21,511 nt of DNA from Pseudomonadota bacterium (GTDB lineage Bacteria > Bdellovibrionota > FAC87 > UBA2466), in NCBI GenBank assembly GCA_043767805.1, contig JAYUGC010000176.1, positions 1-21,511 of the forward strand, in the 5' to 3' direction. The translations under genes and the position numbers were made by a program. Below the pieces are notes generated by a model. It did not search any database, was not told the DNA's origin, and saw only the letters and a program-made list of their open reading frames with translations. This document shows positions 14,941 through 18,813 of the stretch, one piece after another (position 1 is the stretch's first letter; each line of letters begins with the position of its first letter).

Positions 14941-15137
14941 TTCATGGACTTTCTGATCTCGTCTAGCTCGCCCACGTTTTTCGCCGTGGACTGAATGTTC
15001 GTTTGCGGGCTCGTGATGTGGCCTTCCACCACTCCGATTAAGCCGCCGACCGCATCGATTTGGCTCTTGGTCGGCTGAGAGAGTTGAACGAGCTCATTTG
15101 AAACCTCCGGGCGAGACTCTAGTTCAGTAGGTTCTGT
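14937..15137 (-). pseudogene. Startless coiled-coil-like reading frame; possible gene remnant
   Basis: Open frame ...ELESRPEVSNELVQLSQPTKSQIDAVGGLIGVVEGHITSPQTNIQSTAKNVGELDEIRKSMN* with no start codon at its 5' end; fills the intergenic gap. Confidence 0.3.
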
Positions 15138-16089
15138 CTAGGCAAAGGTGCACAAGCCCCGCTAGGGCGTCTCTGGTAACGGAGGGAGGCATTTCTTTAA
15201 GCCAACTTTCGGTCCGCGCCGCTTTTTGAGCGAGCTCGGCCCTCGCCGGCGCGTCTTCCTCGCGCTGGGCCGCTTTGGTGAAAGCGGCGACTAGCTCGGG
15301 CCCAACGGTTTTTTTGGCGAAGTCCTTTTCCGTTCTCTTCCTCAGATCGGGATTGGCCATCACCATTTTCCACGTCACCCAGTTGAGCTTTCCTTCCCGC
15401 AAATCGCTCCAGCGCTCTTTCGTGGGACAACCGTGCACGTCGAGTAAATCGTCCGAGAACTGAAAGACGGCGCCGAACCCTTCCAAGAACTCTCCGACCG
15501 CCGCCAAGGATACCGTAGGCCTGAGGAGTGGCCCTACTTCACCAGCCCACCTAAGCAGTGAGGAGGTTTTCAACCGGCTGATATCGAAGTAGATCTGCTC
15601 TCGCAAGGGAATCTTGTAGCGAGTTTCGTATTGTAGGCACTCGCCTTGAGCGAGATCTTTCACCGTCCGGCAAAGCCGCCGGAGAATTTCGATATTTCCA
15701 GCGAGCGCCACCTGATGGATGGCGTCGCTGAAAAGGTAGTCTCCCGCGAGGACGGGCAAAGTATTGTCGTAGAGGGCGTTGGCGGAGGGCTCTCCCCTCC
15801 TGACCTCCGATTTATCGACCACGTCGTCGTGCAGAAGGCTTGCGGTATGAATCGCCTCCGCGGCCCACGCATAGGTCTCCAACTCCGTCTCGGGCACGCC
15901 GCACATCTCGCCGAACCAAAAAACGAGGCGCGATCTGAGTCGCTTGCCTTTGCGCTCCCAAAGCGCGCCGCAGATGTCTTCGACCAACGCCACTTCCGGG
16001 GGCGAAATAGGTCCGCTCACCCGATCGAGCTTATCGACGAAGGAAGCTGATTTACTAAACGCCGAAAGCACCGCCGCAGAAGGGCTCAT
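15124..16089 (-). CDS. Long-chain trans-polyprenyl diphosphate synthase (IspB/HepT-like)
   Basis: GKRLR, FARM IHTASLLHDDVVD..RRG, AGDYLF, GE..Q, KT, SARM FQFSDDLLD, DLREGK. Ala at position -5 of the FARM indicates a long-chain product. ATGA-coupled to the menA-like gene. Confidence 0.92.
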   Translation of the reverse strand: MSPSAAVLSAFSKSASFVDKLDRVSGPISPPEVALVEDICGALWERKGKRLRSRLVFWFGEMCGVPETELETYAWAAEAIHTASLLHDDVVDKSEVRRGEPSANALYDNTLPVLAGDYLFSDAIHQVALAGNIEILRRLCRTVKDLAQGECLQYETRYKIPLREQIYFDISRLKTSSLLRWAGEVGPLLRPTVSLAAVGEFLEGFGAVFQFSDDLLDVHGCPTKERWSDLREGKLNWVTWKMVMANPDLRKRTEKDFAKKTVGPELVAAFTKAAQREEDAPARAELAQKAARTESWLKEMPPSVTRDALAGLVHLCLDRTY

Positions 16090-16904
16090 CGAAAGACCTC
16101 CGAGTAGAGAACGACAAGCGCTCCCACGCCAACTACCTGAGAGGCTCCAACCAAGATGGACTTAGGCTCGATACGCGCCGAGGTCACTCGCCAGATAACG
16201 ATGGCTCCGCAGAGCAGCATCACCAATTTCGGCCCGTGCGCGAGGCAAAGAAAGACGAGGGCTGCCGCGAAAAGAAGTTTCGCCGTCGAAGCCGCCGCCC
16301 GAGCCCCGTGACGAACGGCAAAAGACTGTTTGCCCGCCAGAGAATCGGTCAAGACTTGGGGAGGTTGATGCGAGAACAAAATGGCGACGGAAAGAAGCGC
16401 ATACGCGGCGATTAGCGCGAGCCCGGTCAGGTCCATTCGTCCCATCGCGAGCCAGTAAAGACAGCCCGCCACTCCCGGTCCGTAACAAAGACCGGTCGCC
16501 CACTCGCCGAGCGCGCTGTAGGAAAGCGGCTTTTTCCCGGCGTTATAGGAAATGCCCAAGGCAACTAAGGGCAAAGCGAAGTAGAGGAGGCTCGCTCGTC
16601 CGGCGCCAAAAACGGCGACTAGTCCGACGAGCACTCCCACGGCTGCGGACACCCAGCCGTGGCGTGAAGCAATTTTGAGGTTGCCCTGGTGAAAATGGAT
16701 CCAGGAATCGCTCTTCTCGACATCCGCGCCTCGTCGCCAATCGGTCACGTCGTTCAGCACGTTGATGCCGTGCTGAAGGAGGATGACTCCCGCCCCCGCC
16801 AGAAGCACCCAGCCGCCATTTCGTCCGGAAGTCAGGGCCAATACCGAGAGAACGGGCAATAGCGACACGAGGTAGATGGGCGGATTTAGGGTTTTCCAAA
16901 ACAT
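16086..16904 (-). CDS. menA: UbiA-superfamily prenyltransferase, MenA-like
   Basis: Multi-TM; NDVTDWRRGAD (MenA NDxxDxxxGxD), YNAG..PLSY.ALGE, D..AGKQSFAVRHG. Confidence 0.8.
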   Translation of the reverse strand: MFWKTLNPPIYLVSLLPVLSVLALTSGRNGGWVLLAGAGVILLQHGINVLNDVTDWRRGADVEKSDSWIHFHQGNLKIASRHGWVSAAVGVLVGLVAVFGAGRASLLYFALPLVALGISYNAGKKPLSYSALGEWATGLCYGPGVAGCLYWLAMGRMDLTGLALIAAYALLSVAILFSHQPPQVLTDSLAGKQSFAVRHGARAAASTAKLLFAAALVFLCLAHGPKLVMLLCGAIVIWRVTSARIEPKSILVGASQVVGVGALVVLYSEVFR

Positions 16905-16913
16905 AGTGAGAAT

Positions 16914-16937
16914 CGGCGGCCCCCGAAGGGGCCGCCG
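16914..16937 (-). other. Very stable GC hairpin with a cUUCGg tetraloop between the di-iron gene and menA
   Basis: Minus strand reads CGGCGGCCCC-TTCG-GGGGCCGCCG (perfect 10-bp stem); no U-tract; 9 nt before the menA ATG. Confidence 0.75.
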
Positions 16938-16946
16938 CTCCGATGA

Positions 16947-17501
16947 TTAAGAGGCCATGCGAGCGACTTGCACTTCGGTCAGGGCTTGCTGAAACCAGAG
17001 CGCGTGAGTGCGCTCGGAATCAATGACCCGCTGATAGACGCCGGCTGCTTTGGAATTGCCGGCAGTCAGCGCCTCGTCGCGGAAACGGGGATAAATGTCC
17101 TGGAACTCGCGGGTCTCGACGCGGATGGCGACTTTCAGGGCGTTCTCGATGACCTGCTCCGCGTTCATCGCGATGAGACGGTCGGAGTGCGCCTGAATTT
17201 CGGTGAGCGCCGCGGTCGCCCGCGTGGTCTCCTCGCCCGCCTCCGGGCTACCGAGCTCTTGATACAGCTCTCTGAGCCAGATGGAGTGGAGCTTCTCTTC
17301 GCCCGCCACCTTCAAGAAGAGCTCGGCTACTTTGGGATAGCCCGCCTTCTTGGCCCAGCGCGCGAACTCCGGGTACATGACTTTGTTCTCGTACTCTTCC
17401 ACGTCCACGAAGGACTTCGCCGTGGCTTCCCCGTCACTACCGGACTTAGCCGCCGCGAAGCATTCGAAGATCATGTCTTCGGTGATTTGCTTTTGGTCCA
17501 T
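16947..17501 (-). CDS. Ferritin-like di-iron protein of the rubrerythrin superfamily, symerythrin-like, without rubredoxin domain
   Basis: Start at ATG 17501 (AAGGAG 6 nt upstream), 184 aa. Two symmetric halves: E35xxE38...MYP...E69xxH72 and E129xxE132...IYP...E163xxH166. No CxxC motifs. Confidence 0.85.
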   Translation of the reverse strand: MDQKQITEDMIFECFAAAKSGSDGEATAKSFVDVEEYENKVMYPEFARWAKKAGYPKVAELFLKVAGEEKLHSIWLRELYQELGSPEAGEETTRATAALTEIQAHSDRLIAMNAEQVIENALKVAIRVETREFQDIYPRFRDEALTAGNSKAAGVYQRVIDSERTHALWFQQALTEVQVARMAS

Positions 17502-17515
17502 GGTCATCTCCTTGG

Positions 17516-17569
17516 TTTCTGTACTTTCAGTATATTCTGAAACATCCGAAAGTACAGAATACCCAGAAG
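17516..17569. promoter_or_regulatory. Operator-like array of six phased 9-bp units with nested palindromes (candidate GbsR-family binding site)
   Basis: TTTCTGTAC|TTTCAGTAT|ATTCTGAAA|CATCCGAAA|GTACAGAAT|ACCCAGAAG. Perfect 12-bp IR TTCTGTACTTTC (17517-28) / GAAAGTACAGAA (17548-59); inner TTTCAG-N6-CTGAAA (17525-42). Confidence 0.75.
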
Positions 17570-17579
17570 CCAATGTCAA
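17551..17579 (-). promoter_or_regulatory. Sigma70-type promoter for the di-iron/menA/prenyl synthase operon
   Basis: Perfect TTGACA (17579-17574) with a weak -10 candidate TGTACT at 17 nt spacing; the -10 lies inside the operator array. Confidence 0.45.
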
Positions 17580-17602
17580 GGGACCGTGCTATGCCTTGGG
17601 CC

Positions 17603-18274
17603 ATGGTGGAACTGCCCTTCAGCCGCATCGCGGCTCAATACGATCGACTCAATGGCGTGCTCTCGCTCGGCACGCACGCGCTCTGGAAGAGAAAGCTCGT
17701 GCACACCATGCTCCGTTTACAGCCGCGGCCCGAGCGAGTTCTCGACGTCGCCACGGGCACGGGTGAAATCGCGCACCGCTTCTCGCGGAAAGTGCCCGGC
17801 GCGGAAGTCATCGGCCTGGACCCTTGCGCGGAAATGATCGAGGTGGGAAAAGCGAAGGGACGCAAGGCCAAGTGGATCGTCGCGGGCTCGGAGCGCATTC
17901 CGCTTCCCGATGAAAGCGTCGATATCCTCACCTGCGCTTTCGGCGTGAGAAACTTCACGGAGAGGCCGCGCGCCTTTCGCGAATGGGCGCGCCTCTTGAA
18001 ACCCAGCGGCGTGGTAGGGGTCATCGAAATCCATCCCATCCCCCGCGTTTGGTACCGCCCGCTCCTCGCCTTCTATTGGAAACACCTTATGCCGAGGCTC
18101 GGACGGCTACTTGCCGAAGAGAAAGCCTATCGGTACCTGAGGGACTCCACCGTCGGCTTTCTCTCGGCCCCCGCCATGGTGGAAGAGGCCCGGCTAGCCG
18201 GTCTCGAGTCTTTAGAGACCCGCTCCCTTTTTGCCTCCGGTATGGTAAGTTTCTGCCTTTTCCGGAAGCCATGA
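17603..18274 (+). CDS. menG: Demethylmenaquinone/ubiquinone C-methyltransferase (MenG/UbiE family)
   Basis: FSRIAAQYDRLNGVLSLGTHALWKR, SAM motif VLDVATGTG, AFGVRN, LKPSG, AYRYLRDS. Start at 17603 is preferred (17591 or 17573 are possible). Confidence 0.88.
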   Translation: MVELPFSRIAAQYDRLNGVLSLGTHALWKRKLVHTMLRLQPRPERVLDVATGTGEIAHRFSRKVPGAEVIGLDPCAEMIEVGKAKGRKAKWIVAGSERIPLPDESVDILTCAFGVRNFTERPRAFREWARLLKPSGVVGVIEIHPIPRVWYRPLLAFYWKHLMPRLGRLLAEEKAYRYLRDSTVGFLSAPAMVEEARLAGLESLETRSLFASGMVSFCLFRKP

Positions 18275-18813
18275 GTCAGGAAACCGAAACCTCAATGACC
18301 GAAGAAGAAATCGCGTTCTCCGAGATCATCGGAGATCTCGTGGAGCAGCTCGGTTTCAAGCGCCACCTCGGCCGCATCTGGTCCCTCATCTTTTTGCGCC
18401 CCGAGCCAGTGAGTCCCACCGACATTCAGACGGAGCTTTCGCTCAGCGCCGGCACGGTGAGCTCCGCTCTAGCCGAGCTGCAGACGTGGGGCGTAGTAAA
18501 GCGCATCCGCATCGCCGCCGATCGTAATTTCTATTACGAAGCGGATGTGCAGATCTGGCGCTCGGTCAGTAACGTGCTGCGCACTCGTGAGCTTCGGATT
18601 TTGGAAGAGGCCAGCGCCGGGCTCGCCGGACTCGCGACTTCCTTGGAAAAGCGCTCCAGTGCCAACGCCTCCTTTCAAATTAAGCGCGTGAAGCACGTAA
18701 GAGAGTCGGTCGATACGGCGACCCTGCTGTTCACCCACCTAGTCTCCCCCTCGCCTTTGAATCTAGTGAAGATGAATAAACTTTTTCAGCGCCTTAAGAA
18801 CATCAACCTTTAG
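18271..18813 (+). CDS. GbsR/MarR-family transcriptional regulator
   Basis: Start at ATG 18271 (ATGA overlap with menG); GFKRHLGRIWSLIFL.PEP...DIQTELSLSAGTVSSALAELQTWGVV...R.FYYEA.VQIW is a GbsR-type winged-HTH pattern. Confidence 0.85.
   Translation: MSQETETSMTEEEIAFSEIIGDLVEQLGFKRHLGRIWSLIFLRPEPVSPTDIQTELSLSAGTVSSALAELQTWGVVKRIRIAADRNFYYEADVQIWRSVSNVLRTRELRILEEASAGLAGLATSLEKRSSANASFQIKRVKHVRESVDTATLLFTHLVSPSPLNLVKMNKLFQRLKNINL

Follow-up and report, generated by a model that had tools for sequence, protein, structure and literature searches.

The window analyzed here, a 21,511-nucleotide stretch of a Bdellovibrionota genome (GenBank assembly GCA_043767805.1, contig JAYUGC010000176.1), encodes a symerythrin-like di-iron protein (SYM) that is strictly linked to a MenA/UBIAD1-like prenyltransferase, both being part of a minimal quinone-type module. 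The other members of this module are a polyprenyl diphosphate synthase (PPS), a UbiE/MenG-type methyltransferase and a MarR-like protein. By analogy with Coq7, SYM could be the oxygenase that activates O2 and acts on the ring in an isoprenoid-quinone (or quinol-like) pathway not described so far, a reading to which we assign a probability of roughly 0.5. What is novel, our results suggest, is a distinct symerythrin-like clade that is tied to a MenA/UBIAD1-like prenyltransferase in both predatory and sulfur-oxidizing bacteria, and this supplies a concrete functional hypothesis for the sister clade of symerythrin.

The linkage is supported by genomes from several lineages. When one genome per species was scanned, 32 SYM loci were recovered, three of them in Bdellovibrionota and the rest in genomes labelled Gamma- or Betaproteobacteria, including metagenome-assembled genomes (MAGs) of Thiobacillus, Thiobacillaceae, Chromatiaceae, Sedimenticolaceae and Ectothiorhodospiraceae. 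Every carrier genome (32/32) encodes exactly one orthologue of the prenyltransferase (E ≤ 1e-53), which lies directly downstream of SYM and on the same strand in 25 of the 32 loci and shows 39–57% identity; two of the seven loci lacking an adjacent copy end at a contig edge. Where the prenyltransferase is unlinked from SYM, its neighbours proved uninformative: those found were only genes for PepN, FKBP, CbiX, an ABC transporter, a HemN-like protein and CtaA. In the window's order, 38 genomes were compared: 18 carry SYM and the prenyltransferase side by side, and the other 20 have neither. The PPS of the cluster type (E ≤ 1e-66) is found in exactly these 18 genomes, and the other 20 have only weak PPS paralogues (E ≥ 1e-22) of a kind that the window's genome also contains. 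More broadly, of 151 genomes sampled from the phylum, 13 encode SYM: the window's own genome, 9 of 20 from its family, two of three from a sister family and one of 20 from another family. Because the linkage recurs across three bacterial classes, we disfavor chance adjacency of SYM and the prenyltransferase.

The full gene order (PPS and prenyltransferase downstream of SYM, with the methyltransferase and MarR-like genes divergent from them) is conserved in the window and in eight further Bdellovibrionota genomes, loci L001 and L062 sharing one genome. MarR-like orthologues with 60–66% identity occupy the same position in L001–L003 and L058–L063, and beyond the five-gene module no conserved genes were common between genera among the loci compared. 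An earlier reading of this DNA, made from the sequence alone and hereafter the sequence-only reading, had rightly expected informative gene neighbours. The PPS gene is the genome's best match to Escherichia coli IspB, and among NCBIfam models it comes closest to solanesyl diphosphate synthase, under the cut-off. The methyltransferase passes the cut-off of NCBIfam TIGR01934 (196.9 versus 158.35 bits), and no other gene of the genome matches E. coli UbiE strongly. Genes overlap by 4 nucleotides both where the PPS gene meets the prenyltransferase gene and where the MarR-like start meets the UbiE stop.

In the pathway that we propose, the cluster PPS would make the polyprenyl tail and the MenA/UBIAD1-like membrane prenyltransferase would join this tail to an aromatic head. 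SYM would add a ring hydroxyl, either to a soluble ring before prenylation or to the prenylated ring afterwards, possibly by a decarboxylating hydroxylation. The UbiE/MenG enzyme would then C-methylate the quinol, and the MarR-like protein may control both divergent operons via a conserved palindrome in the promoter between them. The model for such a function is Coq7 (Clk-1, demethoxyubiquinone hydroxylase), a ferritin-like di-iron carboxylate protein that hydroxylates the ubiquinone ring. This O2-dependent hydroxylation of a quinone ring is the role that SYM might play; however, Coq7 belongs to another family and the likeness is one of functional analogy only. Here we infer that SYM acts as an oxygenase and not as a peroxidase, and likewise its substrate, the order of the steps, the product and the site bound by the regulator.

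The SYM gene (coding bases 16950–17501, stop codon 16947–16949, minus strand) is considered real because it has 450 database relatives at E ≤ 1e-3, mostly 60–70% identical. The best 120 of these 450 are 61–85% identical and 180–232 amino acids (aa) long; these lengths, and homologues of 184–189 aa, indicate that translation probably starts at the ATG at 17501 and not at an upstream TTG at 17579. Counted in the translation, the first half of the protein carries E35, E38, Y43-P44, E69 and H72, and the second half E129, E132, Y137-P138, E163 and H166. This confirms the pattern of ExxE, YP and ExxH that the sequence-only reading had assigned to both halves, at the residues it named; F15 and V128, its putative crosslink pair, also sit where it put them. 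The ExxE...ExxH sets of the two halves are the predicted di-iron ligands. The halves align with each other without gaps (31% identity over 55 residues, E 6e-9), indicating internal symmetry. Rubrerythrin (PF02915; E 4.7e-16, residues 36–173) is the sole Pfam domain, so that the claimed absence of a rubredoxin domain is upheld by the Pfam search, and COQ7 (PF03232) is not among the Pfam matches. Against the NCBIfam rubrerythrin model NF045767, SYM scores 57 bits, below the cut-off of 200.

Among solved structures, the best match to SYM by sequence is symerythrin (3sid/3qhb, E 2e-23, residues 15–176 against 17–175), followed by sulerythrin (E 4e-8). In this alignment, F15 and V128 of SYM fall on residues 17 and 127 of chain 3sid, which we take to be the crosslinked Phe17 and Val127 of symerythrin. 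An AlphaFold2 model of SYM, metal-free and built on a 46-sequence alignment, has a predicted template modelling (TM) score of 0.81. Mean confidence (pLDDT, predicted local distance difference test) per 10-residue block is 85–98 in the bundle core and low, about 50–57, in the N-terminal arm (blocks 1–30). The modelled helices (24–52, 56–81, 90–146 and 150–183) would form a single-chain four-helix bundle. In a Foldseek search of the PDB with this model, symerythrin (3qhb) ranked first (TM 0.83/0.85, 178 columns, 32% identity) and nigerythrin was well behind (TM 0.63).

We placed SYM in a tree of 87 rows, comprising 18 members of the SYM clade, 7 genuine symerythrins, the representative cluster P0134 and 61 other rubrerythrin-family representatives of 135–215 aa taken from P0159–P0271, with longer and shorter ones left out. 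In this quick, midpoint-rooted tree, for which a careful search was unfinished, the 26 rows of the SYM clade, genuine symerythrins and P0134 split from the 61 others on a branch of length 1.69 with a Shimodaira-Hasegawa-like approximate likelihood ratio (SH-aLRT) of 99. A grouping of SYM with ordinary rubrerythrins or erythrins, named beforehand as an outcome that would speak against symerythrin homology, was not seen in these 87 rows. Overall, the PDB match, the Foldseek search and the tree support the proposed homology, and on these comparisons SYM is a member of the symerythrin family, neither an ordinary rubrerythrin nor an erythrin.

None of the 47 rows of an alignment of 44 SYM clade members with P0122, P0134 and P0139 departs from SYM at the eight ligand positions, at the tyrosines of the two YP motifs, at F15 or at V128. 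The symmetric ExxE...ExxH arrangement had been taken as defining for symerythrin; that claim needs qualifying. An alignment-free regular expression, ExxE(26-34)ExxH, matched twice in 11 of the 61 other rubrerythrin-family representatives and three times in one more, and since these 12 have at least two motifs, the doubled motif is not exclusive to symerythrins. Rubrerythrin, nigerythrin and sulerythrin have in common with SYM the PF02915 domain, the second-half ExxE...ExxH and the YP motif; they differ from it in lying apart in the tree and at two positions. Of the 61 other representatives, 60 lack the N-terminal arm that bears F15, and at the position of V128 Gly is found in 47/61 and Val in 1/61. 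The V128 position and the N-terminal arm thus appear to separate symerythrins better than the doubled motif does.

Symerythrin itself, the Cyanophora paradoxa cyanelle ORF180, has been known since 2011 from high-resolution structures (3qhb, 3qhc and 3sid) and for a self-made C–C crosslink, and we know of no function for it. Like SYM, it lacks a rubredoxin domain and is an internally symmetric, single-chain four-helix bundle of about 180 aa that carries ExxE...ExxH in each half, a Phe in the N-terminal arm and a Val before the second-half Glu. The two are only about 31–33% identical, however, and form separate clades. A search with SYM of 1.84 billion representatives clustered at 50% identity returned 229 matches at E ≤ 1e-3 and 5 at 1e-30. 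Full-length members of the SYM clade fall into essentially one cluster (P0122, 63% identical), and the next full-length relatives are P0134 (39%) and P0139 (33%), of which P0139 matches 3qhb at E 3e-67 and represents the genuine symerythrins. Within the SYM clade, the N-terminal ITEDMIFECFAAA is nearly frozen in the 47-row alignment; Cys14 within this motif is found in 45 of the 47 rows, and Phe takes its place in the other two clades, true symerythrin included. Hosts also differ: the SYM clade is found in Bdellovibrionota and Gamma/Betaproteobacteria, and true symerythrin in cyanobacterial-type organisms. SYM therefore appears not to be an orthologue of cyanobacterial-type symerythrin but to belong to a tightly conserved clade of its own, about 33% identical to it. 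The sequence-only reading had proposed a symerythrin homologue in a new lineage; the non-phototroph hosts bear this out, whereas SYM is not a lone case but part of a large clade.

If SYM were nevertheless an ordinary symerythrin orthologue, acting as it does in cyanobacteria and glaucophyte plastids, its neighbourhood would be coincidental. The fold and all ligands are common to the two proteins, as are the residues taken to be the crosslink pair. The separate SYM clade argues against this explanation, as does the prenyltransferase linkage, which is found in three bacterial classes and is absent at true-symerythrin loci: none of six (five with usable flanks) has UbiA or quinone genes nearby. 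We strongly disfavor it and consider it very improbable.

The partner enzyme is a UbiA-superfamily membrane prenyltransferase like MenA and human UBIAD1, its nearest named relatives. It differs from MenA. All MenA NCBIfam equivalogs score below cut-off (TIGR02235, 70.6 of 225 bits; TIGR00751, 43.5 of 102.15 bits), and identity to E. coli MenA is 29% over 112 aa; E. coli UbiA shows no significant similarity (E 0.09). In the second Asp-rich motif, which reads SHQPPQxxTDxxAGK in the prenyltransferase family and NNLRDINSDRENGK in E. coli MenA, an invariant Gln (Q183, 30/30 sequences) replaces the first Asp. In the PDB, UBIAD1 alone matched the family profile. Furthermore, unlike MenA of the pathway through 1,4-dihydroxy-2-naphthoate (DHNA), the partner enzyme occurs in hosts in which MenB and MqnA/D were not found.

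The window's genome, rated 100% complete with 2.8% contamination, was surveyed for quinone genes. Profile searches of this genome found no MqnA/D or UbiD, no MenD or Ubi-type flavin hydroxylase over the cut-off, no MenB over the cut-off (best 113.7 versus 342.7 bits) and no Coq7 (PF03232) anywhere, and E. coli MenA, UbiA, UbiC, UbiD and UbiJ gave no tblastn match at 1e-6. On the other hand, tblastn with E. coli proteins recovered two complex I gene sets, SdhA/B, CydAB and two UbiB-like genes, and chorismate synthase is present. Because complex I, succinate dehydrogenase and cytochrome bd are encoded, the organism appears to need a quinone. Three UbiA-family matches were identified in this genome: a haem O synthase over the cut-off beside a CtaA-like gene, an unclassified prenyltransferase and the cluster gene. 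By these searches, the genome has no recognizable tail synthase, ring methyltransferase or candidate quinone prenyltransferase outside the module.

Two established routes were considered and rejected for this genome. A classical or futalosine menaquinone route, with the cluster gene as an ordinary MenA, lacks MenB, MenD and MqnA/D, none of which was found. For ordinary ubiquinone synthesis, searches of the window's genome turned up no UbiD, Coq7 or Ubi-type hydroxylase, and the phylum sample gave UbiD in 0/151 genomes. MqnA/D was likewise found in 0/151, and MenB in 59 of 151, none of them among the 13 SYM-positive genomes or in the window's family; sampled genomes of that family yielded no MenB, MqnA/D or UbiD. 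Among the 32 carriers, profile searches found MenB and MqnA/D in none and UbiD in 23, none of which belongs to Bdellovibrionota. Two copies of 4-hydroxyphenylpyruvate dioxygenase (HPPD) are encoded in the window's genome (G000:C193:2292–3317 and C127:13796–14782) and two in each of three other Bdellovibrionota carriers examined (G165–G167).

In several Proteobacteria of sulfur-oxidizer type, the surroundings of SYM include quinone-reactive modules. Upstream of SYM in L007, L011, L015, L017, L024 and L030 are genes for NrfD, a 4Fe-4S dicluster protein, multihaem cytochrome c, molybdopterin oxidoreductase and rhodanese, and such NrfD-type modules adjoin SYM even where the prenyltransferase lies elsewhere in the genome. 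In L006 and L012, of Ectothiorhodospiraceae type, SYM is downstream of an SRPBCC (Polyketide_cyc) gene and CBS-domain genes; the quinone-binding protein Coq10 is of the SRPBCC kind. Together these neighbours hint that the product of the module may serve particular respiratory complexes. One proteobacterial genome (G193) has two SYM copies, L029 and L048, one alone and the other beside the prenyltransferase near NiFe hydrogenase genes.

The proximity to quinone-reactive modules at the six NrfD-type loci also fits a different function, in which SYM would be a rubrerythrin-type peroxidase or oxidase working beside the quinone pool, either reducing H2O2 or O2 with quinol or protecting the quinol, the polyprenyl products or the prenyltransferase. 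Membership of the rubrerythrin Pfam family, and of the superfamily that includes the solved peroxidases rubrerythrin and nigerythrin, is consistent with such a function, and the extra Glu in each half may leave the metal site coordinatively crowded for substrate oxygenation. However, a general quinol-dependent protector should accompany any quinone pathway, whereas SYM tracks one prenyltransferase subfamily (32/32 carriers; 18/18 and 20/20 genomes of the order) and was not found with MenB (0/13 in the phylum sample, 0/32 carriers). SYM is also the first gene of a biosynthetic operon, and the promoter, with its putative operator, is common to UbiE. We consider this function, the main alternative, rather unlikely.

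Another explanation concerns the product. SYM and the prenyltransferase could make a non-respiratory prenylated aromatic, such as a membrane antioxidant or a chromanol-like or signaling lipid, with SYM as a tailoring oxygenase. The ubiquinone marker UbiD in 23 of the 32 carriers implies that proteobacterial carriers need no such pair for their primary quinone, the proteobacterial pair has an adjacent UbiE or PPS at L014 alone, and half of the window's order manages without the module. The sub-threshold MenA scores of the prenyltransferase and its Gln in place of Asp point the same way. In Bdellovibrionota, however, the module includes a UbiE/MenG methyltransferase over its subfamily cut-off and an IspB-type PPS, the sole such genes in a genome with quinone-dependent complexes and no other route found. 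A non-respiratory product therefore seems to us improbable.

Several points weigh against SYM as a quinone ring oxygenase. Characterized rubrerythrin-family members are, to our knowledge, peroxidases or oxidases, not substrate oxygenases. The role proposed for the SYM clade is predicted from genes, and the module holds no gene for a ring-forming enzyme. Homogentisate as the general ring precursor, following the logic of plant plastoquinone, was rejected: HPPD is over the cut-off in just 3/32 carriers and in 0/29 proteobacterial ones; one of the latter, G189, shows an incomplete match, under the cut-off, where a contig ends. The second unclassified UbiA-family gene of the window's genome (G000:C65:24157–24987, equivalent to L071:2657–3487; Pfam 31.7 bits, below the cut-off) also counts against the oxygenase role; this gene adjoins an acyl-AMP/CoA-ligase-like gene and another that matches no NCBIfam model. 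The mutual exclusion of MenB and SYM tracks family lines and hence is not independent evidence, the absences reported above come from profile searches on draft genomes and MAGs, and co-occurrence was tested starting from SYM, with the prenyltransferase-without-SYM case covered within the window's order alone. Finally, the whole module is missing from 20 of the 38 genomes of the order (G154, G004 and 18 others), one of the same genus and 93% complete, from which it follows that the module is dispensable there or that quinones are obtained otherwise. These SYM-less members may be quinone auxotrophs, perhaps fitting a predatory lifestyle, or may use another route.

The literature searches, whose results were partly titles and abstract openings, returned no link between symerythrin or rubrerythrin-like proteins and prenyltransferases or quinone synthesis. 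A 2026 survey describes many lineages that seem to lack quinone pathways and suggests that more quinones may await discovery (PMC13386864). From its Text S1 we note, as a lead only, a report of menaquinone in Thiogranum longum without a menaquinone pathway, the identity of the culture being doubted by the authors (PMC13386864). For Bdellovibrio bacteriovorus, reference 52 of the survey concerns ubiquinone-8 and three Ubi homologues (PMC13386864), which we judged only loosely relevant. Elsewhere, the mPQ paper leaves the C1 hydroxylation step unresolved (PMC11874023), and PlqH, the cyanobacterial plastoquinone hydroxylase, is a flavin enzyme (PMC12998194).

If the module makes a quinone, it would fill one gap among the lineages with no recognizable quinone pathway. 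If SYM is indeed its ring oxygenase, this would be a third enzyme type for aerobic quinone ring hydroxylation, after flavin monooxygenases and Coq7, and could explain how sulfur oxidizers with ubiquinone as their only quinone serve low-potential NrfD-type complexes. A more far-reaching version is that SYM, the prenyltransferase, UbiE/MenG and the IspB-type PPS together constitute a complete, unrecognized, O2-dependent route to a respiratory isoprenoid quinone, in which a symerythrin-type di-iron centre installs the ring oxygen in place of a flavin monooxygenase or Coq7. This we regard as possible and put forward more tentatively than the oxygenase role itself. Were it true, it would give one Bdellovibrionota lineage its sole quinone route and would yield a second, perhaps lower-potential quinone in sulfur-oxidizing Gamma/Betaproteobacteria. 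It would also provide the first physiological role for symerythrin-like proteins, with the Val-Phe crosslink as an off-pathway reaction of a substrate-deprived oxygenase.

The features of the module in the window are collected in Table 1.

Table 1. Genes and intergenic elements of the SYM module, with positions in the window.
Feature	Position	Strand	Length	Evidence and remarks
Polyprenyl diphosphate synthase (PPS), IspB/solanesyl-type, long-chain	15124..16089	minus	321 aa	Pfam polyprenyl_synt 2.6e-47
UbiA-family prenyltransferase	16086..16904	minus	272 aa	Pfam UbiA 5.9e-18; distant MenA/UBIAD1-like subfamily
GC-rich hairpin in the SYM/UbiA-like gap	16914..16937	minus		10-bp perfect stem, 4-nt loop, no T-run
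Symerythrin-like di-iron protein (SYM)	16947..17501	minus	184 aa	Heads the operon SYM -> UbiA-like -> PPS; translation, Pfam, PDB, Foldseek, tree
Divergent SYM/UbiE promoter region	17502..17572		71 bp	Inverted repeat and palindrome
UbiE/MenG-type quinol C-methyltransferase	17573..18274	plus, divergent from SYM	233 aa	Pfam Ubie_methyltran 6.6e-43
MarR-like regulator	18271..18813	plus	180 aa	Pfam MarR_2 2.2e-06

Two intergenic elements may bear on regulation. The promoter between the divergent operons contains a perfect 12-bp inverted repeat (17517–17528/17548–17559), identified by repeat search, and a TTTCA-N8-TGAAA palindrome at 17525–17542 inside it. The palindrome is found in the divergent promoter of seven of seven Bdellovibrionota clusters examined, those of the window and of L058–L063, and together with the repeat it is probably the operator of the module's MarR-like regulator. 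The gap between SYM and the prenyltransferase gene is 42 nt and contains the GC-rich hairpin, whose arms (16914–16923 and 16928–16937) were found to be 100% complementary in the repeat search. This hairpin is possibly an intercistronic mRNA element and may give the soluble and the membrane partner different mRNA stability or translation.

Other searches around SYM gave minor observations. The ESM Atlas returned generic ferritin-family and prenyltransferase clusters and nothing more specific, and SYM-UbiA fusions were not seen among the best 150 of the 229 representative matches. The 19 longer SYM relatives that were scanned proved to be multi-rubrerythrin repeat proteins or a VIT1 fusion. Some of the relatives are giant proteins of 650–1957 aa (P0123, P0124, P0127, P0131 and others) with three to eight tandem rubrerythrin domains, which also bear SLH, Big_2, dockerin or Por-secretion-tail domains. 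They look like cell-surface or secreted arrays of rubrerythrin domains.

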